Positions 8,138 to 42,792 of a stretch of DNA of 44,084 nt are shown here, piece by piece. Numbering within the stretch: position 1 is the first letter of the stretch; every line of letters starts with the position of its first letter. The notes beneath the pieces are model-generated. The model saw nothing but the letters and a program-made list of their open reading frames with translations, had not been told where the DNA came from and made no database searches. The stretch is from a bacterium (GTDB taxonomy: Bacteria > Bacillota > Clostridia > Christensenellales > CAG-917), in the NCBI GenBank assembly GCA_963620965.1, contig CAVFCJ010000001.1:1-44084 (forward strand), written 5' to 3'. Both the position numbers and the translations under genes were made by a program.

Positions 8138-8138
8138 C

Positions 8139-13000: not shown

Positions 13001-13030
13001 AAAAACGCTGAAAAACAGCGTTTCTTATGT
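13001..13030. terminator. Bidirectional intrinsic terminator (spmB / DUF1858 convergent)
   Basis: Stem aacgctg (13004-13010) / cagcgtt (13016-13022). A7 run upstream, which gives a U7 tail on the minus strand, and T-rich sequence downstream. Confidence 0.7.
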
Positions 13031-13118
13031 GTTTTTTGATGTTGTTTTGAAGTTTTCTTTGATGTTATTTTTCGATTGTTTTGTTGTTTTTTGCGGTTTT
13101 TTCTATGCGTTTATAGCG

Positions 13119-13319
13119 TTATTTTCCAATAGCCGCATTGAGTTTTGCAACGAGTTCGTCAACGTCGATGCCGTGCACTGCCGCCGCTTCTTCGAGAGTT
13201 TCGCCGTGTGCGAGCATACAATGCAAGCAATGCATTCCGCTCTCTTGCAACACTTGAGCGAGTTTGTCGGGGTCGCCTTGTGCGAGTACGTCGATGATGA
13301 GCATATCTTTTGTTACCAT
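13119..13319 (-). CDS. DUF1858 / hybrid-cluster-protein-associated redox disulfide domain protein
   Basis: 66 aa. The GMHCLHC motif followed by ETLEEAAAVHGIDVDELV is typical of this small-domain family. GGAGG RBS upstream. Confidence 0.75.
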   Translation of the reverse strand: MVTKDMLIIDVLAQGDPDKLAQVLQESGMHCLHCMLAHGETLEEAAAVHGIDVDELVAKLNAAIGK

Positions 13320-13422
13320 TGTTTTTACCTCCGTTTGTAGACTGTATGTTATGTTTTGTTTTTTGTTGTATTATGCGCCGAAAGCGAGCGAATCTCTCAC
13401 TGCCGCACGGGAAGCGCGCAGT

Positions 13423-14502: not shown

Positions 14503-14530
14503 ATGTGATAAAACCTATCTTTGCCCTCTA

Positions 14531-15646: not shown

Positions 15647-15674
15647 AGGTGCCTCCGTTGCTTTTGTTATATGT

Positions 15675-15702
15675 ATTATATCACAAGCAAAGATATTTTC
15701 AA
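15675..15702 (-). promoter_or_regulatory. Promoter of the SPFH/zinc-ribbon operon
   Basis: Minus strand reads TTGAAA-N16-TATAAT with an extended -10 (TGaTATAAT), about 30 nt upstream of the start at 15646. Confidence 0.6.
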
Positions 15703-15758
15703 TAAAAATTTGCATTTGCACTGTTTCTGTTGCCAAAAAAATCCGCTCGTGACAAAGC

Positions 15759-15784
15759 AAAAGCCCCGCTTTTGCGAGGCTTTC
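15759..15784 (-). terminator. Intrinsic terminator of the giant gene
   Basis: Minus strand reads aaaGCCUCGC-aaaa-GCGGGGCuuuugcuuug. Seven-bp GC-rich stem (15763-15769 / 15774-15780) with a U-rich tail, 28 nt after the stop at 15812. Confidence 0.8.
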
Positions 15785-15811
15785 GGTTTTTGTTTAATCA
15801 TACGCTTTCAA

Positions 15812-18800
15812 TCAGCCGTTGATTGTAATTGTTGCCATGTCGGACAAAACTTGATACTCGGGTATGGTTTGTCCTTCTTCAACTGCGGTGTGCGAATCTG
15901 CAAAGTCCTTTGTTGCCGGTTGAGTTGTCACGACCGTGCCGTTGCCGTCCACAACCGTGCCTATCGCTGCATAGAGTTTGTAAACAACCTTGCGGTCTGC
16001 GTATGTGGGAAGCGTTACATTTGCGCCGGAGGACGAGAACATGACCGCATATGTTGCGGCAGCATTCACCTTGTCGCTGACCAAATAGACTTCAACGGTG
16101 CCGAACCAAACTATGTTGACGCTTGCTCCGCTTACGGTTGTTGTCATGTTGAGCGTAGTGCCGCTGTACAAACTCGACACCGCCAGTTTGGTCGGTTGAA
16201 GCGTTGAGTTGGTTTGATCGATATTCACCGAGATGCGTTCTTGGTCGCCGAGTTGGACGGTTGCATTGCTTCCGCTTGCGCTTGTCGTGATTCCGCTTGA
16301 CGTGACGGTGTATTGCTCGTCGGCAGGCATAGACACGATTGCATAGAAGAATTCAATCTCAGTTGTCGTGGACGCCGTCTCCGGATACGTAACCGTGCCG
16401 TCTATCGCATTGTACGTCGGATTGTAGACGTTGAACTTGCCGATGTAGGTGAACGGCATTGTCAATCTGTTCGGATCGTTGGGATCGACGCTGAACGCAC
16501 TGTCTGCAACGCCCGACGAGATGCTCGAACTGTAACCGCCAGACTTCGCCGTGAGTTTGGTCACCCCGCCCGTGACGGTGGTTTGAGCCTCCGTGATGTT
16601 GGTTGCTTCCATCTTCTGGACGAGGAACGGAATCTTGTAGGTTTGGACGTTTCCGTCAACGCCGATAAGTTTTGCAGTGACGTAAATCACGCCGCCGTTG
16701 TAGGAAGGTCTAAATTCATCAAACGACCATGCCAGTTTTCTCGTATCGCTTGTTGTCGAGTACGTTTGAGCCGTATATGTTCCGTCCGCCTGACGCTCAT
16801 TGAGAGAAATCGAGGTTGGCATCGTCGGCTTGATATACTCATACGGATTGATGTAAGCCGCAACGCCACTGTTTACGCCATAGGCGTAACCTGCAAGTTT
16901 CTTGAGTTCGGTTTCGTTTGCGATGCCGTCTTTGCCTGCCTTGACGCTTCTGTCAATCACGTTGACGGTGAATTTGATACGCTGCGTGCCGACTTCGTTT
17001 GCAGAAGTCGAATCTGTTGCAGTGTAGTTGTACTTACCGTCGTAGTTGACGATTGCGTATGCATAGTATTCGCCGCCCGCATACGTCACGTTGACACCGC
17101 TGAAATCCCACGTTACAGGCACGTCGACCTTGGTTCCGTTTGCAAGCGTGACGGTGAGTCTTGTCGGGAAGTTTGCGTAATCTCTGTTGAGTTCGTCTTC
17201 GCTGAGAAGCACATATTGTCCGTTGACAAGTTTGTATGTTCCGTCAAGATTGTTCTTGACATAAGTGCCCTCATCCGTTGTGGACGGCTCATAGCGATCG
17301 CCGCTGTAACCCGTCTTTCTTTCAAAGACATTGCCATCTGCATACGGGTCGATGACGAATTTGCCACCGGACAACAAGCCGCAGGTGTCGCCTTCTACGA
17401 GCGTTGCGTCGCCTGTCGCTTTGCTGTTGTTGACGTGTATGGTGACATCGACTTTCGATGTTGCGCTGTTGCCCGAAGCATTGCTTGTGAGAGTTGCCTC
17501 TACTGCAACGTTGCCTCCTCTATAGGTGTAGTTTACGCTGCTCGCATCCCAACTTGCGTTGAGTGTTTGAGTTGTCACGTAAACGAGGATGTAGAGGTCT
17601 TGTCCGCTTTCGCTCTTATAGGTCGTGTCCGCAGATGCGTACGTCACCTCGCCGGTGTACAGAATGTAGTTCTTGGTGTCGGCATTGTAGGTGTAGAATT
17701 TGACGCCGGTGTAGTTTCCTTCCTGACCTTCCGCCTTAAACTCGTTATTCGCAGAGTACACGCTGTAGATTCCGGGATAAACTTCGCCGTCGGTGTCGGT
17801 GAATCCGTGACGTTTGGTGTAGGTGCTGTTGTAGGTGAATTTACCTGCATTTTCGGATCTGCCTTCCGTCCACCAAGTTTGTGCAAGCATAAATTGTGCG
17901 CCGACGTAGAACGTTGCCGTTTGAGCATATTTGCTTGTGTCATAGACGGTGTTTTCTCTGTCTGCATACACGTCTTTGTTGTACTTGTACGAGCCGACCG
18001 ACATATCGTTGTATGCAAGGTCGCTGTTTGTGAGCGTAACCTTGGACACGCGAATCTTGATGGTCATTTCAAACGCATCCGTAACCTCGATTTCTTTGGC
18101 TTCCGAGTTCCACACATGTACGATCATCTTTCTCTCGAGAGTTGACGTAAGCCCTGCGAGGTCGCTTGCCGAAGGCGCGTTTTCATAAGTGATGTGGTAT
18201 TCGCCGACATCGCCGTTTGCAAACGTAAGTTGCATCGTATCAGGCAGTTTGTCTGCGCCGACGTATGCAAAGTGGTTGTAGTAGACGTATTGTTCGGGCA
18301 TACCGGTCGTCTTGTTGTAGACGATGTCGATGTATCTGCCGTCACCGTCGGTATTGTCGATGAGCGTGTCGGTGATTGTGGAATACTTGCTCGTGTCAGA
18401 ATACAGATATCTGAGGCCAGTGTCGTCAAGCAAGAGTTCCGCGTCCACAATCGTGCGATCGAGCACCGTGACCGGTATGTTGACACGTTGTTTTGCGAGC
18501 ATATATCTCGTTTCATCAGTGAGGGCGAAGTTCGCATCCGTCTTTTGCTTGTACTCGATGTAATCCTCGATTGCGACGTAAGTCGGGTTGACCTTGTTGT
18601 CGTCGGTGATATCCTCAAGGACGTAGCCGCCGTTTGCTTTCTCGATGCCAACAATCGCAGTCGCCATATATGCCGAGTTGCTCTTGCCGCTCTTGATGAG
18701 TTTGTCAACATCGGACCAGTCGAAGTACGCGTCGAACGTGTCGCCGCCCATCGTCGTGATTCTCATCCAATTGTCGAGATAAGAAGCGTCTTTGTTGAGG

Positions 18801-33800: not shown

Positions 33801-36800
33801 TTGGTGATTTGGATTTGGAATTGAGAATCGCTGTATGCGAGCAACAACACCGCGTCGCGTTGGATCGAACGATTTTGCACGCTGTCGCTTGCCGTTTGCG
33901 CGCCGTTTTCTTCATTGTCACCGCCGATCGAGCCGAGTTTGTCAACGACTTTCTTTGCAAAGTCAATGAAGTTTTCAATCTTCGAGTAGTTTTCCGCAGT
34001 GGAAACAAGGCCCGTGAGGTCAAGATAGAGCGTGCCGCCACTCAAATACAAGCCGCCCAGCACCTTTTCGTTGCCGTTGCCGATTTCGTTTGCGGTGTCG
34101 TATTTTGCAAAGTAGCCCTTGTCGTCAACTTCGACAAATTCGATTGCGAGTTCCACTTTGCTCATATCGCTGTTGTTGATGAAGTCGCCAAACGAACCGC
34201 CCGACGCAAGTCCTTGCAAATCGAGTGCCGCAAGGTCGATGTTTGCCGAAACTCTCAAACCGATGCCTACGTTGAATGCGGACAACGTTTGCAAATTGAT
34301 AATCATATCGCGGAACGCATTGGGAAGCAAACCGCCTGCATTGACGACTTCCGCGCTTGAAGAATTGAAGTAAATCAAGCCGCTTACGCTCAGAGATACG
34401 TTTTGATCCTGATATGCGCTCTTTCCGCACTTGTTGTAGAGTTTGACTTCGCTTGCAAGAGCATTGCGAGTGACATCGTTGCCGTCTGCGTCCTTTTCGG
34501 TGACTGTCATCGGAATGTCGACTCTCGAATAGAACGTGTCTCTTGCGAGTGCGGAAGCGTCGTTCTTGTTGACATAGATGTCGTTTTCAACGTCATAGAC
34601 ATAGTTGCCGTTGGAGTCAACGTTGTATTTGACGGTGTATGCGTATTGCTTGCCGTCCTCGCCCGTCTTTACGGTTGCGTAGGAGCGAGAATACATTTGA
34701 ACGTCTGTGAGATCCTCTTTGGCATAACGCTTCGTGCCTTCGGGGAGGACTTCTCCGTCGTTTATGAGCCTATATTCGCCGTCCTCGCCAAGAATGTATG
34801 CACCGTTTGCGTCAACCGTGAAGTTGGGCTTGCGGTACATGCCCGTCTTGAGCAAGTATTCGCCGTTTGCGTCCGTGTCGAACGCATAGTATATTGCATT
34901 GTCGGTGAGATCCTTTTCTCTTTCGTAGTTTTCACCGCTGAATCCGCCGATCAATTTGACGATGTTTTCGATGTAGTCGTCAAGCGAAATGAATTCGAGT
35001 TTGTCGTCGTTGTCTAGAAGCGGTTGGTTTGTATCGACGCTGATAAGACCGACTTTTGCGTCAAGTCCGAGATTGAGGTCGATGAGATATTGAGAATCCG
35101 AAGAAAGGTTACCCTCGGAATCGATCGGGGCTTTCTTGTTTGCAAATGCGAGTTTGAGTTGCAAAGCGAGCGATTCGTTCATGCCGTACGCTTTGAACTT
35201 ATCCGTTTGCGGATATAGGAACAAACCGCTTTGAGATTCGTCCATAACCAAATTGTCGGAATCGACAACCGTTTCAAACAACATCGAGAACAAGTCGTTG
35301 AGGAAGTTTGAACGCACAAACACGCCCAAGTATTTTATTCTCTTGACGCCGTCGTCGCCTATCCACGGCTTGCCTGCAAGCACGATCTTCGACACGATCA
35401 TGTTGAGGATTGTGCCGACGCTCGAGTTGCCGTCTGTCATATCCGCCGCCGTGCTTGCGTCGCTGTTGCCGCCGAGTTCCACGCCGAGTTTTGCAAGCAA
35501 GTCGAGCAAATCGACCTGTATACGCGGACCGCCGATGCCTTCCAAATCGGCAAATACTACGCCGTCTTCGAGATAGACGCCGATTTTGGTGTTGCCTTCA
35601 GCTTCATAGTCGAAAGTGATGCCGATGTACGCTTCCAAGCCTTTGAGGATGGTTTCGATGTCAAGATTGAGATTGTTAAGGTCTATCTTCGACAAGTCTT
35701 CCATGCCTATCTTTTGGAGGTTGAGTCTTGCCTTGACGTCGAGTTTGAAACCGTCGTCCATCTTGTCGGAAAGCACGAGATTGAGTCCCAAACGTTTGAG
35801 CAAATCGCCGACGCTGAACTTGTTTTGTTGCACTTCGAATCCGATTTCCTCATTGTCTGTGTTGATGCGAATCTGCGGAAGCATGGTTGCAAGAATGTCT
35901 TGCAAACTGTCCATGTTGAGGAGAATGTCGAGCAATTGGTCTAATGCGAAACCTTCGCGGACGTATGTGCCGTTGTTGTCTTGCACAAATCTTTGCTCGT
36001 TTGTGCTGTACGAATATCTATCAAGCGGCGAAACTGCTTCGAGAGCGCGCTGGTCGGTGACGAGAGTGTACGTTGCGCTTGCATAGTAGTCGACGATCAA
36101 ACTGAGGTCGATTGCGATGATATGCGCATTGGTCATCGATGTGTAGTAACTTCTATACTCGCCGTCTTCCGCTTCAACGAACGCGCCGCCGACTTTCTTG
36201 TACTTCGTGCCGGTGTAATTTGCCTTTTCGTCTGTCGTCAAAAGGACAAACTTATCCTCGCCCCTTATACCCTTTTGCGCTTTTTCGCGAATGGTTGCGT
36301 ATGCGCTGCTCGTTGTGCCGGTTGCAATATCGATATTGTCAACGCTCACACCTAGTGCGAGGAGGTTGCTGTCGATATTAACGTCTATCGCAATTGACGG
36401 GTCAAGTTGCAAATCAACACCAACGGAAATGTCGAGGTCGAGTTTTTCAATGATTTCGGCAATGTCAAGGCTGCTGCCGCCTTCTTCGCTGTCGTTTTGC
36501 GTGAGAGCCGCAATAAGTCCCACAAGGACGTTTTGCATGACGAGTACGCCGAGTTTGCCGTCCGCAATGTTGAGGATGAGTTGCATTTGCTCGTCCGCAC
36601 TGTTGGAGAGCAATTCGTCCGCCGCCGTGGACGCGTCGCCGCCATTAATGATGGAATTGAGATCGCCGAGTGCGTCCGTGATGAACTTGCAGAGCACGTC
36701 GCAGAGGTTTGTTCCTTCGAGATAAATAGGCTCGCGACCGAGACTTCCGAAGTCGAAATAGATCTTCTCGCCTTCGACGAAAGCTGCTAATATATTCTTA

Positions 36801-39800
36801 TTTGTTATTTTATTTTTAATTTCAAGAACAATATTGCTATCGTTCGGCTCGTTGAGCGCGAGGTTTGCGCCGAGACTCACTCCGAGATTGTATTCGATGT
36901 CGTCAAACACATCCAGCCCGAGTTTGATGCCGAGTTCGGAAGCAAACAAATCGATGTATTTTTCAAGACGGATTTGCTCGTCTTGTCCTTTGAGTTGCAA
37001 ATCGAGTCCGAGATCGACGTTGAGAGAAAGCGTATTGAGATTTTCCGCCGTCGTATAGATGGTCGGGTCGAAATCCTCGGGCAATACGCCGTTTTCTTTG
37101 CCGAGCGCGAGTTTTACGGAACTGAGTTCCAAACCGACGTACGCGGGGTCGATTTGAAGATTGAGTACGAGTTTATAATCGTTCTTCCACGCAAACGCAA
37201 GATAACTTCTGTCCGAATTGAGTTTGATGAATTTTTCCGGGTCGACTTGCTTGCCTGCGAGCATTTGGACGAGGGTTGTCACAAGTCCTTCCGCAAAGTT
37301 GATTTGCAAACCTTCGGTGTCAACGCCGACATAACTTATGATGCCGCCAAGCACTTTGCCGAGAATACCCATAAGGTCGATTCCGCCGCCCTCATCTGCC
37401 GCTACGGCTGCCGTGCCGCCGGCGCTGCTCGAATCGTCGGTCATCAAACCGCCGATCAATGCGCCCAGATCGATGTTGGACAATGCAAGATGGAAGTCAT
37501 CGCTCAAATCGAGGTAGACCGTGCTTACCGATTGACCTTGCGCGTTTTCACCCGTGCTTTGCAAACGCAATGCGAGGATAACGTGTTCGAGTCTTTCGGC
37601 ATTAGACATCTTGTCCACAAGAGTCATCTTCTCGTTGTAGATTTCGATTGCAATGTCGCTGTGAGATACGATGTATGCTATGTCGAGCAAACTTGCCGCA
37701 GTGTAAATTTGTTCGTTTGCATATTGTTCTTGATTTTCGTCGGTGACGTTGATCTTGACATAGTTTCCGTCAACGAGGACGTAACCTTCGCCTCTGTAAT
37801 TGAGATCAGTCACTTCTGTGAGCGCAATGCCGCACGCAATATATTGTTTGAGATATACGTCACCCTCGAACGTATTGCGTTCGTCGTCGGTGAGAAGGAC
37901 GTATTTCGCACCGCTGAGTTTGTAGACTTCGACGTATTTTGCGAGGTCTGCAAGTTTTGAACTTTCATACTTCTTGAACACTACGTTTTGAGTGAGGTCA
38001 ACGGGAACGTCGGGATTGAGATGTGCGTTGAGAGCAATGCGGAATCCGATGTTTGCGCCCGCTTCGACAGGCACTTTGTAGGTGAGAAGAAGTTGTCTTA
38101 TGAACGAATTGAGTTCGGGATTGCTGTCATCGAGGAAGGAAGCAATCCATTCGCCGAGCGTCCAAGACTTGTTGCCTTGAAGCGCGCCGACCGTAAACGT
38201 GCCTTGAATTTCGGCGTAAATACTGGGAATGGTGATGTCGCCGTAGTCGTTGAACAATTCAACGTCTTCGAACACGTTGCCTTCGCTTTGAACGTAGGCA
38301 GTCATTTCTTGCATTTTTTGTCCGTCGCGGACAATCTTGATGGATTCGACCGCGTCACCGCCGATTTCGAGGTTGAGCGGAGCGAGCGTAATGCCGTCCT
38401 CCCCTTTTACGACCGTGCCGATATAGATTTCCGCGCCACCGATTTGTTGACCTGCGTCATTGTTGACGTCAAGCGCGATACGGATGGGTTTGTTGTCGAA
38501 TTTATCTTTTACGCTCGCCCAAGCGATTTGCGCCCAAGCGGTGATATCGCTTGCGTCGATTCCTATGAGTTGATAAAGGATATCGGTCAAACCTTTTGCG
38601 ATTTGCAATTTAACATTGTCGGAAGAAAGCGCCGCGATAATGTCGAGAGCAAGAGCCTTCCTTGCATCGGCAGCGCCTTGATCGACAAAGTCTTCCGCCG
38701 CCATTGCTTCCGCACCGACCGAGCCGTTGACTGTAACGGCCGAGTCTTTTGCAAGCAATGCGAGAATGACCTCATAGAGGTCAATGTCCGTTCTGACCTT
38801 ATCCAAACCGAAGTTGCTCGCGTCGATGTAGAGCGAACCGCCCGTGTAATAAAGTCCGAGCAAAACTTCGCGTTCGGCAGTCGCTTGACCGCTGATATCG
38901 CTTGACTTTTTGCCCGTAAGTTCGATCAACAGCTCGCTGACGTTACCATTCGTGTTGATTTGGGGTGCGCCGAGCAAGTATTCTACGATAGGCGAAAGGT
39001 CGAGTTGACCCGCAACGCGCAACTCGTAGTTGAGATCCATCGGCTCATCGAATGCGAGAGTCGCTTTGGTTATGTTTTCTTCTTGATATATGCCGTCGGA
39101 ATCTTTGTAATAAAGTTTGCCGCTATATCCGTCGGGAACAGGCGTTTCTTCGATTTCGACATACTTGCCGTTTGAATCAAGCCAATATTTACCCTCGCCA
39201 AACACGAGTTCTCTTGCGCCTTGATCTGCCGCGAAGTCAAGACCGAGCGTAAGGTCGAGTCCGATGAAGGGATATTCGAGAATCTCGGTGAAATCGTCGC
39301 CTTGACGATTGTCTTTGACAAGATAATCCGTCGCTTTGTCGTTCAAACCTGCGGACAAGCCGTTGAGCGACACGTTGAGGTTGACATTGTTGCCCAAAGA
39401 TACAAACACGCCAAGTTGAAGTTCGGTCAAATTGAGCCCGTCGTTGAGCGCGAGGCGGATTCCGCCGTCGAATTCGGTGCTTGCAAATTCAATCTTTACG
39501 CCGTCGATGTCGAGAAGTCCGAGGACTTGTTCGAAGAGGTTGGAAGCAAGCACTATTTCAAGAGCGTGATTGCCGAGTTTTAATCCGTCGACGATGCCCG
39601 CCACAAATCCGAGCACTTCATTGACGTTCATGCCGCCGTCTTCTTCGGTTTCATCTGCAACGAGAGCCTGATTGCTCGACGAATCGTTCGAATCCGAGCC
39701 GATCAAGTCGATGAGTTCTCTGACGTTGAGCTTGATTTGTTTTGCACTTATGCAGAGAATGTCCGCTTTGAGATACACCCAACCATCTTGCAAATAAAGC

Positions 39801-42289
39801 ACAAGCACTTCTTCGTTGTTGGATTGCTTGTGAATTGCGATCTTTGCAGACGATTTCAAAAGCAAATCGAGAATTTGGATGTTGTCCAAACCGCCGGTAA
39901 GGTCGAGGTCGGCGTTGATGTCGAGTCTAAGACCGCCGTCGATGTTTCCGAGTTCGATCAACGCTTTGATCAAAATACCCTTAAACAACGTGCCGATTTC
40001 CTGATCGGGCATGTTGACTTCGATCTTTGCAAGCTCGCCTTTGAGGGTTTCGAGGTCGAGAGTAAGTCCCGTGGACACATTGACGTGGAGCAAATCCGTG
40101 TTCAACGCACCGTTTTTGAGAATGGGCAAATACGCGTCCTCGTTTTGAGCAAGTTCGTTTTCGAGTTTGTCGAAAGACGCCTCGAAATCAACCAAATTGT
40201 TGATTTTACCAAAGGTAATGTCAACGCCCAACACAAGTCCGATGAGCGGATCGAGGCTGTATTCGGTGTTTTCTTCATTGTATTCTCTCACGCCGAGTTC
40301 CGCACTCAAAGTGAGCGTCTTGTTCTGCTGCGCGCCGTTGTTGACATACTTTAGTAATGCGCCGGTGATGGGAATGTCCGCACCTGCGTTATCGCCTGTG
40401 AACACAAGCGAGAAAATTGCGTCGAGAATATCCCTCGACAAATCTACGCTTATATCTCTGATGTTGAAGATGTTCCCGTCCATATTGAGATTGATATGGT
40501 CGAGAATCATGCTTACAAGAGTCAAAACATCAACCGATCCTTCGCCTTCCGCCGCAGAGTATGCGCCGTGTTGAATGACGATTTCGCCGTTGTCGACAAA
40601 CGTCTGTTGAATATTTTGAGCGGTCGCTCCGCCTTTAAGACCGTCGATTGCTCCCTTGACGGTGTCAAACACGGTGTTTACGAGGTCGCCCAGAAGTTCG
40701 TTTATGTTGATGTCGTCAATCTTGAACTTCGTTCCGTTGTAACCGAGCAGACCGCCCGCGTCGATATACACACCTTCTCTTGCGCCGGTGTAGTACGCCG
40801 TCAAGCGTTTTGCGCCGTCACGGCCGAGAATTTCCGCCGCAAGTCTTGTCTTTTTGGAATCTCTAGTGTTGATTTCCGCTTGAAGTTTGATTGTGAGAGG
40901 CACTTCTCCGCTGGCAAAATCGATTTCTTTTGCAAACAACGGTTTGAGTGCTTCGAGCATTTCGGGATCGAGATTATTGGTGAGAAGATTTGAAAGGAGA
41001 GTGCCGAAAGAGCCTATCACGTTGTCGATAGACACTTTCTTTTCGTTGAAGTTGAGAGTGAGAGAGATTTCGCCGTCGAGAGTGAGGAAAGAATATTTTT
41101 CCGCGCTTTCGTTCACGACGTCGTAAAGAGATTTTTCACCGTCTTGACGAGCGGTGTTGTTTTCGTTGCGATTTTTGAGAAGTCCGGGATTTTCGTCGCT
41201 GCCGACTAAATTGAGGTCGGGGGCACCTGCAAAGTCTGCTTTGGCATAGCCGAGTTTAATGCCGAATTCGGATTGGAACGTGCCGTACTTTTCTTCAACG
41301 CCTTCTACGCCATAGGAGTTGAGGTTTACGTCGATGTCGAACGTCGTGCCTTCGAGAGCGCCGTTCATGATGTCGGCTTCCATATAAAGAGCCACACCGG
41401 CGAGTGCGCCGAGTTTGCCCAAATCGAGACCGAGCACGTCTTTGACGAGTCCGATGATGTTTTCGGGAATAAGACCTTGAATGAGCGGAATTATGCTGAC
41501 GATAAGTCCGAGATCGCAAGGCATACGCAACACTTGATGTCCGTTGCCGTAGTCAACGCGCGTGCCCTTGCTTGCGCCGAACAATACGTTGACAAGCAAC
41601 TGTTCGACGGTCAAATGTGCCAAATCGATGTTGATAAGGCTGTTGATGAGTCCGCCGATGTCATAACCCATCAAAGTGTCATACAACATAGAGGAAAGAT
41701 CGAGTTGTTCGAGAGCGTCCGCAAATTTCGACACGAATTTTGTCATGTCGATCGTGTCGGTATAAACGACGTGGACGCCGTCACCCTTCTTGATTCCGCG
41801 CATATCCGCAACAAGTTTACCTTCGTAATAATACGCGCCGAAAAGCAGAGTCCCTTCACCGTTTTTTGCCATCGTGCAAATGGTGTCTTGGTCGATGGTT
41901 CTGCCGTTTATTTCGGCTGTCAACTTGCGGAATTCAACAAGTATTTCGCTGTTGGAATCCTCGACAGTGTCGATGTCGCCTGCAAAGCGAGCAACGATAA
42001 GCGAATCGGACGAATCCTTGGAAAAGCCCATCACGAACGCCGTGTCGACTCTTATGTAGCGCTTATCTTTTTCTTCGTCCGCTTTTTGCAATGCTGCGGC
42101 TTTGAATGCGTTCCAAAAATCCTGCGCTCCGATGTACTCGGCATTGTCGATGTCCGGATTGGGCGTCGGCGTAGGAATGACAGGAGTGTCGACGTTCCCG
42201 TCAGCTTTCGGATTGCACGCTACGAGACCGAACAGCATTACGCTGACCAGCACGAGCAACAATACGAGTGATAACTTTCTCATTCTCAT
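15812..42289 (-). CDS. Giant surface lipoprotein, about 8,825 aa (26.5 kb), modular, family unknown
   Basis: Uninterrupted ORF 15812..42616. The probable start is ATG 42289 (MRMRKLSLVLLLVLVSVMLFGLVAC), with GGAGGA 4 nt upstream. It has a lipobox signal peptide, repeated modules and Ig-like C-terminal repeats, and is bounded by its own promoter and terminator. Confidence 0.9.
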   Translation of the reverse strand: MRMRKLSLVLLLVLVSVMLFGLVACNPKADGNVDTPVIPTPTPNPDIDNAEYIGAQDFWNAFKAAALQKADEEKDKRYIRVDTAFVMGFSKDSSDSLIVARFAGDIDTVEDSNSEILVEFRKLTAEINGRTIDQDTICTMAKNGEGTLLFGAYYYEGKLVADMRGIKKGDGVHVVYTDTIDMTKFVSKFADALEQLDLSSMLYDTLMGYDIGGLINSLINIDLAHLTVEQLLVNVLFGASKGTRVDYGNGHQVLRMPCDLGLIVSIIPLIQGLIPENIIGLVKDVLGLDLGKLGALAGVALYMEADIMNGALEGTTFDIDVNLNSYGVEGVEEKYGTFQSEFGIKLGYAKADFAGAPDLNLVGSDENPGLLKNRNENNTARQDGEKSLYDVVNESAEKYSFLTLDGEISLTLNFNEKKVSIDNVIGSFGTLLSNLLTNNLDPEMLEALKPLFAKEIDFASGEVPLTIKLQAEINTRDSKKTRLAAEILGRDGAKRLTAYYTGAREGVYIDAGGLLGYNGTKFKIDDININELLGDLVNTVFDTVKGAIDGLKGGATAQNIQQTFVDNGEIVIQHGAYSAAEGEGSVDVLTLVSMILDHINLNMDGNIFNIRDISVDLSRDILDAIFSLVFTGDNAGADIPITGALLKYVNNGAQQNKTLTLSAELGVREYNEENTEYSLDPLIGLVLGVDITFGKINNLVDFEASFDKLENELAQNEDAYLPILKNGALNTDLLHVNVSTGLTLDLETLKGELAKIEVNMPDQEIGTLFKGILIKALIELGNIDGGLRLDINADLDLTGGLDNIQILDLLLKSSAKIAIHKQSNNEEVLVLYLQDGWVYLKADILCISAKQIKLNVRELIDLIGSDSNDSSSNQALVADETEEDGGMNVNEVLGFVAGIVDGLKLGNHALEIVLASNLFEQVLGLLDIDGVKIEFASTEFDGGIRLALNDGLNLTELQLGVFVSLGNNVNLNVSLNGLSAGLNDKATDYLVKDNRQGDDFTEILEYPFIGLDLTLGLDFAADQGARELVFGEGKYWLDSNGKYVEIEETPVPDGYSGKLYYKDSDGIYQEENITKATLAFDEPMDLNYELRVAGQLDLSPIVEYLLGAPQINTNGNVSELLIELTGKKSSDISGQATAEREVLLGLYYTGGSLYIDASNFGLDKVRTDIDLYEVILALLAKDSAVTVNGSVGAEAMAAEDFVDQGAADARKALALDIIAALSSDNVKLQIAKGLTDILYQLIGIDASDITAWAQIAWASVKDKFDNKPIRIALDVNNDAGQQIGGAEIYIGTVVKGEDGITLAPLNLEIGGDAVESIKIVRDGQKMQEMTAYVQSEGNVFEDVELFNDYGDITIPSIYAEIQGTFTVGALQGNKSWTLGEWIASFLDDSNPELNSFIRQLLLTYKVPVEAGANIGFRIALNAHLNPDVPVDLTQNVVFKKYESSKLADLAKYVEVYKLSGAKYVLLTDDERNTFEGDVYLKQYIACGIALTEVTDLNYRGEGYVLVDGNYVKINVTDENQEQYANEQIYTAASLLDIAYIVSHSDIAIEIYNEKMTLVDKMSNAERLEHVILALRLQSTGENAQGQSVSTVYLDLSDDFHLALSNIDLGALIGGLMTDDSSSAGGTAAVAADEGGGIDLMGILGKVLGGIISYVGVDTEGLQINFAEGLVTTLVQMLAGKQVDPEKFIKLNSDRSYLAFAWKNDYKLVLNLQIDPAYVGLELSSVKLALGKENGVLPEDFDPTIYTTAENLNTLSLNVDLGLDLQLKGQDEQIRLEKYIDLFASELGIKLGLDVFDDIEYNLGVSLGANLALNEPNDSNIVLEIKNKITNKNILAAFVEGEKIYFDFGSLGREPIYLEGTNLCDVLCKFITDALGDLNSIINGGDASTAADELLSNSADEQMQLILNIADGKLGVLVMQNVLVGLIAALTQNDSEEGGSSLDIAEIIEKLDLDISVGVDLQLDPSIAIDVNIDSNLLALGVSVDNIDIATGTTSSAYATIREKAQKGIRGEDKFVLLTTDEKANYTGTKYKKVGGAFVEAEDGEYRSYYTSMTNAHIIAIDLSLIVDYYASATYTLVTDQRALEAVSPLDRYSYSTNEQRFVQDNNGTYVREGFALDQLLDILLNMDSLQDILATMLPQIRINTDNEEIGFEVQQNKFSVGDLLKRLGLNLVLSDKMDDGFKLDVKARLNLQKIGMEDLSKIDLNNLNLDIETILKGLEAYIGITFDYEAEGNTKIGVYLEDGVVFADLEGIGGPRIQVDLLDLLAKLGVELGGNSDASTAADMTDGNSSVGTILNMIVSKIVLAGKPWIGDDGVKRIKYLGVFVRSNFLNDLFSMLFETVVDSDNLVMDESQSGLFLYPQTDKFKAYGMNESLALQLKLAFANKKAPIDSEGNLSSDSQYLIDLNLGLDAKVGLISVDTNQPLLDNDDKLEFISLDDYIENIVKLIGGFSGENYEREKDLTDNAIYYAFDTDANGEYLLKTGMYRKPNFTVDANGAYILGEDGEYRLINDGEVLPEGTKRYAKEDLTDVQMYSRSYATVKTGEDGKQYAYTVKYNVDSNGNYVYDVENDIYVNKNDASALARDTFYSRVDIPMTVTEKDADGNDVTRNALASEVKLYNKCGKSAYQDQNVSLSVSGLIYFNSSSAEVVNAGGLLPNAFRDMIINLQTLSAFNVGIGLRVSANIDLAALDLQGLASGGSFGDFINNSDMSKVELAIEFVEVDDKGYFAKYDTANEIGNGNEKVLGGLYLSGGTLYLDLTGLVSTAENYSKIENFIDFAKKVVDKLGSIGGDNEENGAQTASDSVQNRSIQRDAVLLLAYSDSQFQIQITKALLSFVLATFLPDLGSLEEVFDVFNISLGVDLGQPVYKSVDDLKATDLDLYNKFQNEYKGDRYKKYTTEDYSNTPATDTYYVAGNAYYLASTTYVYEVTVDGDNVTPVDGEKHRFEDGNGETGKTYAILENGKYVVISGKVQGKYIHSNANYYAKVENIDKPVSLRSYRMYRRTDGVESVTDTYIAGNTYIRFGGEERQIEQLRTRLFGYVKDENGEYYRTIDLYDQISDYYLGLDIAIGCVNMGLKLGGIEIGFGAGDELLPAYIRDGKAHSYFNDGKEIEYTDETKNSYAFEDVPTNMFYDTIITVGFSVELELGITEGTLDLGKILSSIIGDLTGVVIEMPSTAKGYSSAHFRLDVSLMVDIYDLTKSELKIELINETETGYESLWLGAYYINNTIYVNLEEAFNIQKFAIGGLNIAEILKDYIIDFDSDDEYFVAGGAQASSTSEALVASGAQTSTVDLSDRDLALSMLINRDLLTLKLGDKLFDTILEYIPEDLLGFDIKELFYNELNGGLQVELNTSDSLNLSVDVALGLDGDRYNKDSDYAGTDAEKASLASKVNSAQYYVFRQDANGNYIKSDNGNYVRAITSKEANSVGASDRYAKYKVAFDEGVNTPYLLKVVDNEKGDGSQKLDTTKYPMLEDGKTSVVIYKYDAGAVANNAYVSDGGKYDMTLELGLAIKNLNVAFTNSRTYVLSGDELAEYTNMDDVDRFTLSETIDITTQFKSGNDNDIDLSAVLQAFFPSLTDEQLLVIKAQADDGGDVNRSLQLVLDVDIQVAALLNFMRTELVKYTADGDQFDGDMDLFAVIDLLKQVIEQFKNNTDQLVSLIADIASYVNLSVRLQTKGGNDTEYHDMLGIYMVGGTFELLSPDEKTNVTGENYVDPSERYDHYFETKNGSYYLDETTGEYKYITSDTFAGTRYSYDSSYCYKNENGNYKRVNGGLFVDLSYFNIPSLRVDANEIRKLVSSVLASTSADAQAAADEEESTFPLVKDDSILGYIRTFAYGLQITSRYIKVIANTDYINSILSLVMGENAIQFDEAKFVNQPNVTLYTDNTRYAYDTAENVVTKFIEAYDTSATNDEKKAARREIEKVLGKSKYLYDITEYKGTGASKQGVYYKAEDGSYAQKSEMATVERKAYDAKVEAGTASYYDIKRVDTYIKLQGSDTYILYADATQSQINNSEKVADLLDRGSKVPLLYEKFTTTEGGTVKTEYKQARGSLSVVIPLKSRNEFLSVNLYLWNHKLSVAINAPSVSVTEFQYITRQEAIDDAASADPQYSIKSIAAGARYVNTDEDIYTSVDKEADGLSNWKFDYYDGTGKFDVQKYSDAENYAGPRYYEYRGELIAITKDSLFVKNGTKYIPAAAVDENANPIVTDWALFPDFIAEIENNDKEYYVENTAKTAYVRLQRTFVYKKNTYNSQKKVLLSATDACESENYYIKVQQASSIQQPDFNKPEYADYAYKEYVDSDNLYYISLALRGSLFLQAGKIYFDYATYKGVYNSVVNKITDESLYQEVPDSVLAKIAYKKFQGDYVKVTDTTEIATLKANNGLYVLLNGELDEKYSGVNEALGDVLGSLLGAMTGKIQITEDMTFNVYFSLRLNLGFKLYILPSFGIDVRDLDVAIDVWGEQNDLMENGNYVTSEDRDANNYSGKLLDGTKPHILGIYYDNDKDTGKAGLYVDAEALLGKDAKLFVDMSEYSLEDVITGLVAGIGEDASATDASVASDSVTALNPDKQSADTTSLFVNIFTNALALNVTSGFAKVLIRELLPDNASIADMLPNLKVYLKQNLNPYDITIGAILFNEEGDIPVLNLGLNIQGLNGVEGESSSIEFGRKEDILAMQQGSNAIFYYANFYRDNGNTDYDNYYGKNYNAKDYVKLFHDPTTGYDYIENADGELYTGKDADGKTVAGPEDRYMKAAPVMSEVLASRQLAYEGDIYTDVEGVYVLVYKRLNDIAGNNNLDEDTYREYRNLVKSEQFATFTGTLYTVDNNGNFVKTDKDILQGFTGEGNLQYALASDYTGASAYETGKKVVYNGQEYYPIDPNENGYTDMSEADAFAAQYPNVKVYKQVTDFTNYTKALALNLGDLLGGGTFDVASVLADLECVELGLNLDIRMTLDDVINWTYQFTQFIDDPQIGEYFYFIATSLENSKEFQSLIGLNLDLKVYLKTANLVKMIAGDNSVGILQVLEGAKIYLELTYETNFHGNEKPKALLWVEVKDGKLYLNIDASQIGDIVGWGDFFSYGVVDGLDLSSILGSIATTASAQALTAADDEEEVNTGLIPANIWSILNVVLGRLLIANDFITVGLNETLIADLVGMLADSDSAVLQGISEFLPKLYTTDTKDTSGITINFYGNSPSIDINLGFKVGTLYYETVNNYNAMYGASGKYFKGSDWSGATFKKESDGEYTVGNGADDDNTYVLVSTDDYALVAYAYPAWAGDTYDYVAATNTFTKHTASDTKGAYLKQGDFAIAISLGKLYATVNKDFSVDKDEKFADRNADNSIKYVYVESKDGEYVKDAGGTYRLATDADIEEVHYAKQASYGNYVKLQNATAHLEMSIEISMYSSGNAGNANIIDLSEILDLIMGLINPNSAISGSQLKLNIANEFGNNSGAFLTLDLVANIDVETYKVELGLELNKKTASMATEKTLLGLYLVENAVYVDLSGILGETAKIAVTDLNLDGLLEGVLGKFLAEDDATDASGASIASKDDIGTIEENKDHLKDYAYFMINVTPQKLLLQLNADFVNAIYKKIMAIRGLEQKDLIPDIGDLLVRMDATSGKTTISLNLRFSDGLYFCLDIPSASITKDISESIATHFGLSTEDKKFYKQLTQDELAANPSQEKYVKNAAGEYVLDENPVDESKTYYRHTHTAQVPRDYIEILSLDLDSLINGTGTFDISSLNLPTIGLKASLNLTMTSKNLKPGQNGYDESLAGWVQDLLANLLGGTALLGKFTALTYVDANTLNDGSSVYTGKVYTKNSSGDYILHSEKTYVSGTTYYKYTLADVNITMANEINLTIDIAANVNLAPILAYGIGGILYSDIAVDISLGKPVGSNLISLYYLGSSRLMKKNGTNWELSVATSATYTSNEIYSDALYIDASGLGLGKIKLQGIAGLLGATPSYDAKAASGASVSADATTSDADTAASNALYLQVDIQNGRLGVTFDNAFITTLIGMLGLDLGDIELPPIKSVKLDVNLGAKGLDSINLNAQLDSVGTGANIKISDFDIALGKSMVDNENLIEEVKTGYTGLTYSKTSGLMSLVQNVIDSLKPGLSINIQNKVWQLTQAKGVATLYQDSSITLSGKKVLTSTNIPDSSPQKYNIRLDLESNRADTGLSAILGGNNIFITNITLPSGGLVGTVAPLISALNCLDLGSMLGSSPLLALVKGTDGDDATYEYPTAKTASDTATAAADSGYTYPLNLENLIKSIEVNLFNDNGYWPYFSGATAVSNGAGKISVKVKLNKDAYNELIIKVITVVLGLMKDVVEKDNEAYFGDVQQARGYETTSGLVWEQHEIGDVLISGVGKSNEITNIFNTLQGMVDRNASTDEKVEYLEPIARSLPVSMTKWALLFALDAAGVSLSFGTIKNVASEVIEDLNFLLGGILPIPFATGDIDPSINLYIDLNPTASEYGCTSGQTVKPGIQAIEIMVNAEKTGIGASESMKYNKAKTTTMSSMSTMANGGGASGTTTNLGEAWDFFMIRITPYSTVDNTFNTGLLYFDEAESADPIATQVTPPSEIVIDDPATRSGNAVKADGSTTAITLRDSAFLDATVFPQYANVKFPVVLSGKQMVSYDNSGSYNDAPGSQIVWDAATVDLTAATSEDENGRRLAGYVYGYALNVVLYAIPVYVTNDKEAQTQSIKGYYNINGKYTEKALGIDIDTNSSKYMAELPDLVRIPFRTGGKQTFATYLKDSAGNMAYAIIDPISSAPSETINGSAYQILVQPTADEITAGAEANVNTDGNKFLLMPAYIAGLVTEKDSNGNDVYKTVKVSNEDGTQVEYYVLSRSKLPTGKAFPAGTIDWNTDDFKYDWQGSTDWSSGATSTVQVGFTYQWGLGKAVEDTISLTAKNYKISRLTSMSTDASGTTSQTLKSERDSDGNYTTVLEIKAMDIDADMQNLVTYLSGFKYVSGKFTSESSMSGFDVEWDTAELEKALQAITTKDSNGNAVVNFYKGLDVTIKAKVGGDRFSIFTSVTKTSTSTDKTGFVGKSESFAGKFAQEVDVRIVIKPYVFDSMAKSLVFDQYQYENITADSFGTAYQINVKDAQGNTSVENLTVGNGLFVEAPFIKVGETYHNAYSNGVHDLKSDEITYEGYSNQRTYPLYAKLVIGTEYSGKQEVYVPIEVNEIKPSAVSLTVEHDNTLNPTWYESEAYEKFNVSVGMNTYTMFPDWTTVQYYTNAACTKLKSQQNIFDGGTIYAQVEAYATADGTKNGTKLALVNTGKTDENGEPIYSAQKITLRLNVEQQTIQSVNFFYDETIGDVAAYVRKYANDEAKLAELKAKLADISNYTGSVYQQTHVSDGTAFGIDPINFATNPSDYFKTSDWGDAIGGTPVKINLVKGDSYIAYVRAFDTVVSSKGIDGTDKVQTVYMTIGNDKVQFNVNIPSYEFTDGTMSDTTLAFVDGKVAGTDGDMLQFNYNVFNEWKLPSKATVQTAQGVGEITIDVKWVDYAAPNKDELKSDEDGKLYVEREYFFFDGLSMRYPSAGAFTAKIYLEGFNTNVTIEPNGMSRNYDVFDKFEFARTATVKVGDTTYYNVPIHWESTAMPTADEINQGSFTRKMYVLGVYVEGQDIYSDYTVTINNDFTIDKLTGGYKADNFAINVAKDNFYQGLPKSANVKVGTKTIPVTLAWSDDYTAQSGFDGNMALTITSKDGDEVVLESVVNVAVKVESAGITGLAAGQKYVLDPYAKSGTLFESGSLQEVNVSGSDNTQYAIVEYELDDQAFYDNIASSFGKKFKVAVTYKYNAGKNANVETGEIEVYVVNRNIMFMSDYANRSIVVDTFLNKDASYLDNWMRITTMGGDTFDAYFDWSDVDKLIKSGKSNSAYMATAIVGIEKANGGYVLEDITDDNKVNPTYVAIEDYIEYKQKTDANFALTDETRYMLAKQRVNIPVTVLDRTIVDAELLLDDTGLRYLYSDTSKYSTITDTLIDNTDGDGRYIDIVYNKTTGMPEQYVYYNHFAYVGADKLPDTMQLTFANGDVGEYHITYENAPSASDLAGLTSTLERKMIVHVWNSEAKEIEVTDAFEMTIKIRVSKVTLTNSDLAYNDMSVGSYKYNKDVYADRENTVYDTSKYAQTATFYVGAQFMLAQTWWTEGRSENAGKFTYNSTYTKRHGFTDTDGEVYPGIYSVYSANNEFKAEGQEGNYTGVKFYTYNADTKNYILYTGEVTYASADTTYKSESGQDLYILVYVTTQTLNASWDASSVNYTYRGGNVAVEATLTSNASGNSATSKVDVTIHVNNSKATGDATLVEGDTCGLLSGGKFVIDPYADGNVFERKTGYSGDRYEPSTTDEGTYVKNNLDGTYKLVNGQYVLLSEDELNRDYANFPTRLTVTLANGTKVDVPVTWDFSGVNVTYAGGEYYAYAIVNYDGKYNYTATDSTSANEVGTQRIKFTVNVIDRSVKAGKDGIANETELKKLAGYAYGVNSGVAAYINPYEYIKPTMPTSISLNERQADGTYTAQTYSTTSDTRKLAWSFDEFRPSYNGGVIYVTAKLIGVDGNVQTYKIPFLVQKMEATNITEAQTTVTGGVTKLTAKSGGYSSSISSGVADSAFSVDPNDPNRLTMPFTYIGKFNVYNPTYNAIDGTVTYPETASTTTEIEFFYAIVSMPADEQYTVTSSGITTSASGSNATVQLGDQERISVNIDQTNSTLQPTKLAVSSLYSGTTLNMTTTVSGASVNIVWFGTVEVYLVSDKVNAAATYAVMFSSSGANVTLPTYADRKVVYKLYAAIGTVVDGNGTVVTTQPATKDFADSHTAVEEGQTIPEYQVLSDMATITING
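15815..22669 (-). other. C-terminal zone of the giant protein: array of Ig-like (Big_4-like) beta-sandwich repeats
   Basis: Recurrent LPxxVxVxxxxGxxxxVxVxW-type motifs: LPSKATVQTAQGVGEITIDVKW, FARTATVKVGDTTYYNVPIHW, LPKSANVKVGTKTIPVTLAW, FPTRLTVTLANGTKVDVPVTW, LPDTMQLTFANGDVGEYHITY. Domain boundaries were not determined. Confidence 0.55.
23558..41869 (-). repeat. Zone of at least 14 long degenerate protein modules (about 250-750 aa each) in the giant protein
   Basis: The anchor motif hhG(L/A)Y(Y/L)xxGx(L/V)Y(I/V/L)D recurs, with first codons near nt 41848, 40804, 39808, 38866, 37528, 36793, 35587, 34063, 32638, 31234, 28816, 27166, 25852 and 24634. Most are followed by an acidic Ala/Ser/Thr linker and an amphipathic hydrophobic segment. 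Confidence 0.7.
42215..42289 (-). other. Lipoprotein (SPase II) signal peptide of the giant protein
   Basis: MRMRK n-region, LSLVLLLVLVSVMLFG h-region and lipobox L-V-A-C, followed by a Pro/Thr-rich spacer NPKADGNVDTPVIPTPTPNPDID. Confidence 0.8.
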
Positions 42290-42353
42290 AATCTCCTCCG
42301 AAACATACGCTTCTACGCGTGTAGCGCATATGTGTAGATTATTATACAAGTTA

Positions 42354-42382
42354 ATTATACATTTTTCTCGCGTGTTTGTCAA
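42354..42382 (-). promoter_or_regulatory. Consensus sigma-A promoter of the giant gene
   Basis: Minus strand reads TTGACA (42382-42377)-N17-TATAAT (42359-42354), an exact match to both consensus hexamers at optimal spacing. Predicts a 5' UTR of about 55-60 nt. Confidence 0.75.
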
Positions 42383-42757
42383 TATTAATCTTGTTAGTAC
42401 ACCGATAACTATACCTTGTGGTAGAGCGGTTTTCAAAGCACAATTTGTAGTGGAATCAGCCCGGTTTTCGCGCTTTTTCGCCCTCTTAGCGGCAAATTTT
42501 TCCTGTTTTGCCGCATTTTTTTGCTTTCGCTTCTTATAACACGCGATTTTTTTGGTTTTCGACATTCTATCGCATTGTTTCCATATTTTTACTGTCGCTC
42601 GCTCACACATTTTCATACGGTTAGAATCAATGAAAAAATTTTTCGTCGCCGAAATTTTTTATTTTTCGTTTTTTTGCGATATTTCGCTTTTATTTTGCAA
42701 GATTCGCATATCTATCCGTGCGGTTTTTCTCACATCGCTCGCTTGCCTTGCCGTTCG

Positions 42758-42786
42758 TTGACAGCAAAAGCGAATGGTGTTATATT
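42758..42786 (+). promoter_or_regulatory. Promoter of the DUF1624 gene, positioned for a leaderless mRNA
   Basis: TTGACA (42758-42763)-N17-TATATT (42781-42786), preceded by TGt (extended -10). The ATG at 42793 begins 7 nt after the -10 and has no Shine-Dalgarno sequence. Confidence 0.6.
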
Positions 42787-42792
42787 CATTTT

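Follow-up and report, generated by a model that had tools for sequence, protein, structure and literature searches.

An uninterrupted 26.5-kb gene of uncultured gut Clostridia encodes a predicted giant lipoprotein that belongs to a family of giant proteins

The analysis concerned a stretch of 44,084 nucleotides (nt) of DNA from a bacterium of the Christensenellales lineage CAG-917 (contig CAVFCJ010000001.1 of assembly GCA_963620965.1), which is called the window throughout. More than half of its minus strand is taken up by one gene, which encodes a predicted lipoprotein of 8,825 amino acids (aa). Comparison with orthologues indicated that this gene is real, that it is under purifying selection and that it is not an assembly artefact. 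It was also indicated that it is a native, vertically inherited core chromosomal gene of this clade, because the flanking genes are conserved on both sides. The giant protein is not unique; database scans placed it in a family of 177 or more representative clusters. The reading favoured for it is a surface fibre or adhesin that is extended, tethered by a lipid and equipped with an immunoglobulin (Ig)-like distal end; from the sequence and a partial structural model this reading is given about an even chance of being correct.

The giant gene and its expression signals

The gene was numbered on the window, and the residues of the protein were counted from the ATG at 42289. A preliminary description of this DNA had reported a single uninterrupted gene of 26.5 kb for a protein of about 8,825 aa; its strand, which had been left unstated, is the minus strand. 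The minus-strand frame from 42616 to 15812 contains 8,934 codons and zero stops (table of open reading frames, ORFs), and the second-longest ORF in any frame of the window has 1,317 aa. At the base composition of the gene the frequency of stops among random codons is 0.047, and the probability of 8,934 open codons is thus about 1e-187, in line with the earlier statement that such a frame cannot arise by chance. The ATG at 42289 was taken to be the real start because GGAGGAG lies just upstream of it (42293-42299) and because the N-terminus MRMRKLSLV... is conserved in all orthologues. The coding sequence comprises 26,478 nt, i.e., 8,825 codons and the stop, and has a guanine and cytosine (GC) content of 50%. 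The protein has a mass of 965 kDa, an isoelectric point (pI) of 4.38 and 17 Cys residues (0.19%), so that the estimate of about 1 MDa with scarce Cys was accurate.

The strong ribosome-binding site and the perfect promoter of the preliminary description were both recovered, the latter as a TTGACA-17-TATAAT sequence with 12/12 matches to the consensus. Within the AT-rich intergenic region, a second, weaker promoter-like site (TTGAAA-17-TATAGT, 10/12; 42408-42436, minus strand) precedes the perfect promoter by about 55 nt. The terminator that had been proposed was missed by a simple consensus scan downstream of the gene. When the 71 nt past the stop were folded, they formed a hairpin that is rich in GC (-21.9 kcal/mol, z = -3.3) and is followed by UUUUGCUUUG. 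The downstream SPFH gene has a promoter-like site of its own. Because of its own promoter, the terminator hairpin and the separate promoter-like site for the SPFH gene, the giant gene is probably monocistronic, as predicted from these signals. The gene and its signals are as follows.

15812..42289, minus strand: complete coding sequence of the predicted giant lipoprotein, stop codon at 15812-15814 (ORF table, uninterrupted orthologues, ratio of nonsynonymous to synonymous substitutions (dN/dS) of 0.17-0.23)
42354..42382, minus strand: sigma-70-type promoter, TTGACA-17-TATAAT (12/12 matches)
42293..42299, minus strand: ribosome-binding site GGAGGAG, 3 nt from the ATG (sequence)
15752..15793, minus strand: intrinsic-terminator-like hairpin and U-rich tract (-21.9 kcal/mol, z = -3.3)

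Orthologues and selection

Altogether, 29 related loci, which are syntenic, were found in other assemblies. A scan with one genome per GTDB species yielded 22 orthologous loci, which are 30-91% identical across aa 1-1200. They stem from uncultured gut Clostridia, namely Christensenella sp. UBA6880, UBA7588 and UBA1260, Firmicutes CAG:238 and CAG:475, and UMGS1042, UMGS1043 and UMGS1170. Further sources were metagenome-assembled genomes (MAGs) of the Hadza and other human guts and one MAG from a water-buffalo reticulum, and relatives are also labelled Clostridiales. In 20 of the 22 genome loci the frame ran without a stop from the conserved lipobox as far as the available DNA reached, and in 17 this stretch exceeded 4,400 codons; the two exceptions are L005, which contains a run of Ns, and L011, which has the frameshifts described below. 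When metagenomes were scanned with the final 1,200 aa, eight loci were obtained, and in seven of these more than 4,500 codons were open up to a homologous stop. Two pairs of N- and C-terminal loci overlap, with 100% identity over 665 nt and 99.8% identity over 410 nt, respectively, and could be stitched to two full-length, uninterrupted orthologues of 9,048 and 8,936 aa. A nearly identical contig is present in the sequencing run SRR13434633. The search for homologues and conserved neighbours that the preliminary description had proposed thus yielded 177 clusters and 29 related loci with a conserved neighbourhood.

The dN/dS values were between 0.17 and 0.23 in both halves of the gene (Nei-Gojobori method, 15 orthologous halves), and the level of conservation was even across the length of the protein. 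Codon usage (r = 0.84) and GC content agree with those of the neighbouring genes. The giant protein showed about 80% identity versus 92-96% for housekeeping neighbours, and surface proteins typically diverge faster than housekeeping proteins. Comparison of the orthologues, which at full length measure 8,936 and 9,048 aa against 8,825 aa in the window, further indicated that the protein body gains and loses segments; between aa 780 and 1560 (window 37610-39952) three loci (L007, L014 and L015) carry insertions of about 220-300 aa (997-1,077 versus 781 aa).

These data bear on the reading that the gene is an artefact or dead, i.e., an assembly chimera or a pseudogene that is held open through composition bias. 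It could draw on the orthologous locus of a closed long-read MAG (L011; CP091723.1, 1,647,214 bp, locus 10001-23541), where three frameshifts occur within 13.5 kb and homology crosses each of them. The acyltransferase gene that adjoins this locus is likewise split, and because a neighbouring gene is frameshifted too, the three frameshifts likely represent long-read indel errors, pseudogenisation in that lineage being the alternative. The other point in its favour is that codon bias can hold long frames open, as is seen on the opposite strand. Between 16313 and 42271 the plus strand contains antisense ORFs of 1,317, 943, 852, 692 and 610 aa (e.g., 25181-29134, 31529-34360 and 19013-21571), all of which have TTG starts. 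The codons TTA, CTA and TCA, which are the reverse complements of stops, occur only 7, 6 and 23 times among the 8,825 codons of the giant gene, and these ORFs remain open because of this bias in the sense frame; judged by their sequence they are almost certainly not genes. Against an artefact stand the open frame in independent short-read assemblies from many samples, the two stitched full-length orthologues, the dN/dS of about 0.2 and the lipobox in every orthologue. Taken together, the artefact reading is effectively refuted by these comparisons, and its remaining probability is negligible.

The hosts are uncultured bacteria of the human and ruminant gut, and the gene of about 26 kb makes up about 1.6% of the closed 1.65-Mb genome of a relative. 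Because so large a gene is kept under purifying selection and at a fixed chromosomal position, it appears to matter to its hosts.

A family of predicted giant lipoproteins

Word-indexed searches of a set of 5.8 billion proteins returned unnamed fragments only. With a profile of the recurrent module that is described below, a HMMER scan of 1.84 billion representatives yielded 177 clusters at E <= 1e-3, of which 89 also passed E <= 1e-10. Many representatives are 5,000-7,924 aa long and have 10-15 copies of the module, others are 2,000-3,700 aa long and have 3-7 copies, and about 60 are collinear with the first approximately 900 aa of the window protein. A lipobox was present at about residue 19-28 in 99 of 139 sequences that start with Met (module-scan representatives and fragments P0001-P0011). 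None of the family clusters that were looked up had a name, and the only label seen was "hypothetical protein"; literature searches on giant lipoproteins or giant proteins of Christensenellales and gut Clostridia turned up no account of the family. The family thus seems to be invisible to annotation, as structural dark matter of the gut commensal surface.

A Pfam analysis of nine diverse members revealed only two kinds of domain, Big_4, which is located close to the C-terminus, and Flg_new, which in two members comes straight after the lipobox; enzyme or toxin domains were absent from these nine relatives. Both Big_4 and Flg_new are extracellular domain types. The Flg_new matches (Listeria-Bacteroides repeat) are in shorter members, i.e., P0076 (aa 35-98) and P0060 (aa 40-102), and P0071 (5,548 aa) has an apparent hydrophobic C-terminal segment that is followed by Lys-rich residues. 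Therefore, anchoring and N-terminal modules vary within the family. Another member, P0030 (7,879 aa), is represented by nine NCBI-derived sequences, all equal in length, whose contigs span 35-221 kb. Sequenced isolates, or numerous MAGs of a single species, may therefore contain a giant lipoprotein of this type, which would make it a possible culturable model.

Lipoprotein signal and predicted anchoring

The signal peptide MRMRKLSLVLLLVLVSVMLFGLVAC fits a lipoprotein pattern of the PS51257 style, in which a lipobox [LVI][ASTVI][GAS]-C has its Cys among the first ~35 residues; here the Cys is at position 25. The signal peptide is composed of a positively charged n-region (MRMRK), an h-region (LSLVLLLVLVSVMLFG) and the lipobox LVA-C25. 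The same pattern was matched in 22/22 orthologous loci, so that the lipobox signal peptide of the preliminary description was borne out beyond the single sequence.

42215..42289, minus strand: lipoprotein signal peptide, aa 1-25, lipobox L-V-A-C with Cys25 (pattern, 22/22 orthologous loci, most complete family members)

In a hydrophobicity scan of the giant protein the signal peptide was the sole transmembrane (TM)-like segment. The C-terminus (...SDMATITING) has no hydrophobic segment and no sortase-type signal, and Pfam gave no match to SLH, CWB2, choline-binding or other wall-binding domains. From these features export by the Sec pathway, lipidation at Cys25 and tethering to the outer leaflet are inferred; surface exposure, an extended shape and a role in adhesion would follow as further predictions.

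Domain and module architecture

The protein was searched as ten overlapping tiles, and Pfam matches were listed to E <= 0.1. One domain exceeded the threshold, a Big_4 domain that covers about 0.5% of the protein; besides it, the tile search gave one sub-threshold domain of unknown function. More than 95% of the sequence is without a Pfam domain. The NCBIfam search of the tiles gave noise only, no RTX, Rhs/YD, cadherin or haemagglutinin repeats were matched in Pfam or NCBIfam across the ten tiles, Pfam contained no match to toxin domains, and PHROGs gave 0 matches. For aa 1-8100 no Pfam repeat family was found, and at the DNA level the gene has no tandem repeats of note. The preliminary description had listed RTX, cadherin, haemagglutinin, Rhs, SLH, choline-binding and LPXTG signatures as missing, which agrees with the Pfam results and with the C-terminus. 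Its broader statement that no characterised family is recognisable was right insofar as Pfam, NCBIfam, PHROGs and PDB were essentially empty, and has to be amended for the single Big_4 domain.

17048..17182, minus strand: Big_4, the sole Pfam-supported domain, aa 8370-8414 (E = 2.4e-5, 24.2 bits, cutoff 22.1)
15815..20092, minus strand: C-terminal region rich in beta-structure, aa ~7400-8825, that contains degenerate Big_4-like Ig motifs (sequence, internal similarity, motif matches)

The last approximately 1,400 aa look distinct from the remainder of the protein. They are rich in Tyr, Thr and Val and contain motifs that recall Big_4, e.g., "ATVKVGDTTYYNVPIHW" and "RLTVTLANGTKVDVPVTW", which are below the Pfam threshold except at aa 8370-8414. 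A custom hidden Markov model (HMM) of the Big_4-like motif found three copies only, and the number of C-terminal Ig modules is therefore approximate.

Self-comparison with BLAST and phmmer revealed only weak, dispersed internal similarity of 23-31% identity. Iterated HMM searches, the first single-seed iteration of which gave two copies, uncovered a module of about 100 aa that is present in 12-13 copies between aa 100 and 5,970, with irregular spacing of 270-970 aa. An all-against-all HHsearch comparison of 147 tiles of orthologue profiles converged on the same module. The paralogous copies share about 20-30% identity. In the module a strand "LDLxAxIDL" is followed by a strand "xELxIEL", a hairpin "LLGLYYxxG-xLYIDASGLG", a short strand "KIxV" and an amphipathic helix; the tail is an acidic, Ser/Ala-rich low-complexity linker. 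The protein has 18 low-complexity stretches that are acidic or rich in Ser, Ala or Thr, and several of them directly follow a module. Over the whole length, a hydrophobic alternation of the type HxHxH was observed 281 times versus 158 +/- 15 times in shuffled sequences. The module copies, all of which are based on iterated hmmsearch and on HHsearch of orthologue profiles, are listed here.

41711..41977, minus strand: module copy 1 (aa 105-193)
40592..40891, minus strand: module copy 2 (aa 467-566)
39638..39925, minus strand: module copy 3 (aa 789-884)
38666..38962, minus strand: module copy 4 (aa 1110-1208)
37391..37684, minus strand: module copy 5 (aa 1536-1633)
36593..36880, minus strand: module copy 6 (aa 1804-1899)
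35420..35743, minus strand: module copy 7 (aa 2183-2290)
33863..34180, minus strand: module copy 8 (aa 2704-2809)
32441..32731, minus strand: module copy 9 (aa 3187-3283)
30836..30979, minus strand: module copy 10, partial (aa 3771-3818)
28601..28861, minus strand: module copy 11 (aa 4477-4563)
25649..25948, minus strand: module copy 12 (aa 5448-5547)
24374..24562, minus strand: module copy 13, partial (aa 5910-5972)

Predicted structure of the N-terminal head

Structure prediction and a Foldseek search, as suggested in the preliminary description, were performed for the N-terminal part of the protein. An AlphaFold2 model of aa 1-1200 from five sequences had a predicted local distance difference test (pLDDT) score of 37 and was discarded. 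With a family alignment of 38 sequences, aa 40-760 were modelled with a mean pLDDT of 74.4 and a predicted TM-score (pTM) of 0.58. In this model, strands of up to 18 residues form hairpins and alternate with helices. One face of the strands is 77% hydrophobic versus 28% for the opposite face, and the recurrent unit combines about five strands with a helix and a loop.

40010..42172, minus strand: conserved N-terminal "head", aa 40-760, predicted amphipathic antiparallel beta-strands and helices (AlphaFold2; collinear in ~60 representatives)

Foldseek comparison of the model with PDB gave two matches at E <= 1e-3, and none of the matches had a meaningful TM-score, so that no convincing structural relative was found. 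A probability above 0.6 was reached for the beta-barrel of ApoB-100 (9bd8_A; E = 1.4e-4, TMq 0.11), for lipovitellin (1lsh_A; probability 0.69) and for LolB and a small, LolB-sized Staphylococcus aureus protein (9tpm and 4egd; probability 0.85-0.89, TMt 0.25-0.32), and for no other structures. The matches of the ApoB and lipovitellin type had TMq values of 0.11-0.14 with a root mean square deviation (rmsd) of 20-27 A, and all weak matches together had rmsd values of 13-27 A. The remaining PDB matches were porins and LptD with low probabilities, and repeating beta-groove (RBG) proteins of the TamB, YhdP and VPS13 type were not among the best 50 matches. Against the predicted viral structures of BFVD there was no match at E <= 1e-3. 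Sequence-profile searches of PDB with the A2, A4 and A3 profiles gave nothing meaningful, and when the A4 and A3 profiles were compared with Escherichia coli TamB in hhalign, the probability was 0.4%, a weak test as TamB was represented by a single sequence. In the model, the head's long, curved, amphipathic antiparallel sheets and helices resemble lipid-binding sheet proteins, with a similarity that is too weak to claim a relationship.

This resemblance leads to a reading in which the giant protein handles lipids or other hydrophobic cargo. Its amphipathic sheets would form a long trough or belt, as in AsmA/TamB/YhdP, VPS13 or ApoB/lipovitellin, and the tethered protein could act by binding or storing lipids or lipid-linked precursors, or by conducting them across the envelope. 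The strands of 12-18 residues, one face of which is strongly hydrophobic, the recurrent unit, the enrichment of hydrophobic alternation along the whole protein and the identity of the four structures above 0.6 are all consistent with it. However, the TM-scores are at noise level, Pfam contains no match to AsmA, AsmA_2, TamB/DUF490, Chorein_N, DUF3971 or Vitellogenin, and the TamB comparison, for what it can tell, gave nothing. Many amphipathic helices could simply cap the hydrophobic faces of the sheets, the bacteria are presumed to be monoderm and have no obvious second membrane to be bridged, and known lipid bridges lack C-terminal Ig-like modules. Overall, lipid handling is considered unlikely. 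A bolder version would be a new structural class, i.e., a lipid-anchored protein of monoderm gut Clostridia with thousands of residues in one continuous amphipathic trough or belt, which is a counterpart of ApoB or VPS13/YhdP, binds lipids or lipid-linked envelope precursors or conducts them over tens of nanometres, and is docked through its Ig-like C-terminus to a partner cell or the wall. This version is regarded as quite improbable; if true, it would be of high interest as a new class of lipid-handling structures.

Surface fibre, scaffold or mobile cargo

According to the favoured reading, the precursor of 8,825 aa would be exported through Sec, Cys25 would be lipid-modified by the Lgt/LspA pathway, and the protein would be tethered at the outer face of the cytoplasmic membrane. 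The mature acidic chain of about 960 kDa would form an extended, largely non-repetitive alpha/beta body of long amphipathic antiparallel beta-sheets with helices packing on them. This body would be punctuated 12-13 times by the beta-hairpin-helix module and its acidic Ser/Ala-rich linker, and its distal end would be an array of about 1,400 aa of Big_4-like Ig modules. The body could thus serve as a stalk that carries the Ig-like end through and past the cell wall, where this end may bind glycans, host material or other cells.

A fibre or adhesin was chosen as the best reading because of the distal Ig-like modules, the extracellular-type domains in relatives and the divergence that is faster than that of housekeeping proteins. 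The pI of 4.4, the near absence of Cys and the C-terminal Big_4 are further surface-type traits. The earlier proposal of an unknown surface structure was reasonable and remains the best reading, the function itself being predicted. Several observations weigh against a fibre. Neither Pfam nor NCBIfam revealed an adhesive or ligand-binding domain, and the stalk does not have the tandem array of rigid repeats that is typical of known fibrillar adhesins. Long fibres of Gram-positive bacteria normally use sortase/LPXTG or wall-binding repeats, not a lipid anchor in the membrane. The usable model covers only 8% of the protein, and the structural matches of moderate probability (ApoB, lipovitellin and LolB) are all lipid-binding beta-sheet proteins; therefore, the lipid-handling reading fits at least equally well on that point.

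Alternatively, the protein could be an envelope scaffold or sheath, for example a wall-proximal organiser, a surface layer or matrix, a spacer or ruler, or a scaffold that is associated with the septum or the spore. A core gene that is syntenic and vertically inherited across lineages at only 30-90% identity would suit such a role, as would purifying selection that acts uniformly along the full length and not on the tip alone. The strong consensus promoter, the lipid anchor that holds the protein at the membrane and the share of about 1.6% of a genome that the orthologue occupies also agree with it. The lack of SLH, CWB2 and other wall-binding or self-assembly domains in Pfam argues against a scaffold, and known S-layers are not built from a single lipid-anchored chain. 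A scaffold or sheath is therefore judged rather unlikely.

The cargo of a mobile element or phage, or a toxin, i.e., a tail-fibre-like, polymorphic toxin or defence protein, is very improbable. Giant size would fit such a protein, as would an evolution that outpaces the housekeeping genes next to it (identity of about 80%, against 92-96% for the latter). Yet no match was found in PHROGs or BFVD, toxin, Rhs and RTX domains are absent, and the gene has native codon usage and a conserved chromosomal place between housekeeping genes. Neither a location on a prophage or plasmid nor a toxin-immunity pair at the C-terminus of relatives was seen.

For the favoured fibre or adhesin as well as for lipid handling, knowledge of the fold and of the partners could reveal new long, lipid-anchored surface structures in Gram-positive bacteria or a new lipid-handling architecture. 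The protein is also a possible surface marker or handle to enrich and culture these lineages.

Neighbouring genes

Downstream of the giant gene synteny extends over genes for SPFH and zinc-ribbon proteins, SpmB, SpmA, MetG, TatD, a radical-SAM protein, KsgA and an EamA protein; upstream, an acyltransferase-3 gene and several more genes are syntenic in all lineages. The divergent gene at 42718-43848 (plus strand) encodes a membrane acyltransferase (Pfam HGSNAT_cat 8e-23, Acyl_transf_3 and OpgC_C). It is situated just upstream of the giant gene in 20/21 orthologous loci and 4.4 kb away in L022. A functional coupling of the two genes was considered and set aside; because the entire upstream 10 kb are syntenic, their adjacency is not specific evidence.

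Directly downstream, the gene at 14531-15760 (minus strand) encodes an SPFH/Band_7_1 protein whose C-terminal part carries a series of zinc ribbons. It is followed at 13423-14502 (minus strand) by a gene for a protein of 359 aa that has zinc ribbons at its N-terminus and a TM segment at its C-terminus. This SPFH/zinc-ribbon pair adjoins the giant gene in 8/8 metagenome loci. Within the window, sporulation is hinted at only by the spmA/spmB-like spore maturation genes at 11700-12904 (plus strand), which alone are insufficient evidence that the organism forms spores. The host had been called a probable spore-former, which is compatible with these neighbours and has its basis in them alone.

The MetG and TatD ORFs, as listed, overlap by 62 nt (9610-9671), and the true TatD start probably lies downstream of the GTG at 9671, judging by this overlap. 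MetG has a Lys/Glu-rich linker and a tRNA-binding-like C-terminal extension; in front of metG, Rfam revealed neither a T-box nor another leader, and across the whole window Rfam and tRNA scans gave no matches.

Comparison with known systems

Giant bacterial surface proteins as such are already known. The combination of a predicted N-terminal lipid anchor, a non-tandem alpha/beta body of more than 7,000 aa that lacks known domains and contains a dispersed module, and a C-terminal Big_4-like array was absent from the literature found. Giant fibrillar adhesins, such as Ebh of S. aureus, SiiE of Salmonella and LapA of Pseudomonas, consist of a tandem-repeat stalk, an adhesive domain and a wall or membrane anchor. 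The window protein resembles them in its thousands of residues, its acidic and Cys-poor composition, the Ig-like modules, an evolution faster than that of housekeeping proteins, and its secretion and its anchor at one end, both of which are predicted for the window protein. In contrast to them, it has about 7,300 aa without a tandem array of stalk domains, with dispersed modules of about 20-30% identity instead, its anchor is an N-terminal lipobox and not LPXTG, a C-terminal TM segment or retention by a type I secretion system, and it has no adhesive domain that is recognisable in Pfam or NCBIfam.

Lipid bridges comprise TamB and YhdP as well as the eukaryotic proteins VPS13, ATG2 and BLTP1. 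Great length, long amphipathic antiparallel strands, interspersed helices and loops, an N-terminal membrane tether and near invisibility to family searches are common to them and the window protein, the strands and the tether being predicted for the latter, which has a lipobox in place of a TM helix, a C-terminal Ig-like array and a presumed monoderm host. The best Foldseek matches, i.e., ApoB-100, lipovitellin and the LolA/LolB half-barrels, are all open, lipid-binding amphipathic beta-sheets, and amphipathic sheets are also predicted for the head. The likeness ends at TM-scores of 0.11-0.32 and rmsd values of 13-27 A, which mean no real superposition, and there is no sequence relationship.

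Giant proteins of 10,000-30,000 aa have been described for Clostridia from mammalian guts; these contain RCC1, Listeria-Bacteroides and YG repeats, dockerin domains and leucine-rich repeats, while the Omnitrophota giants in the same study are marked by SecA-like domains and numerous TM regions (West-Roberts et al., 2023, bioRxiv 10.1101/2023.11.21.568195). The present family shares with them its origin as giant ORFs derived from metagenomes, and differs from them in having just one lipobox and practically no domains that can be recognised.

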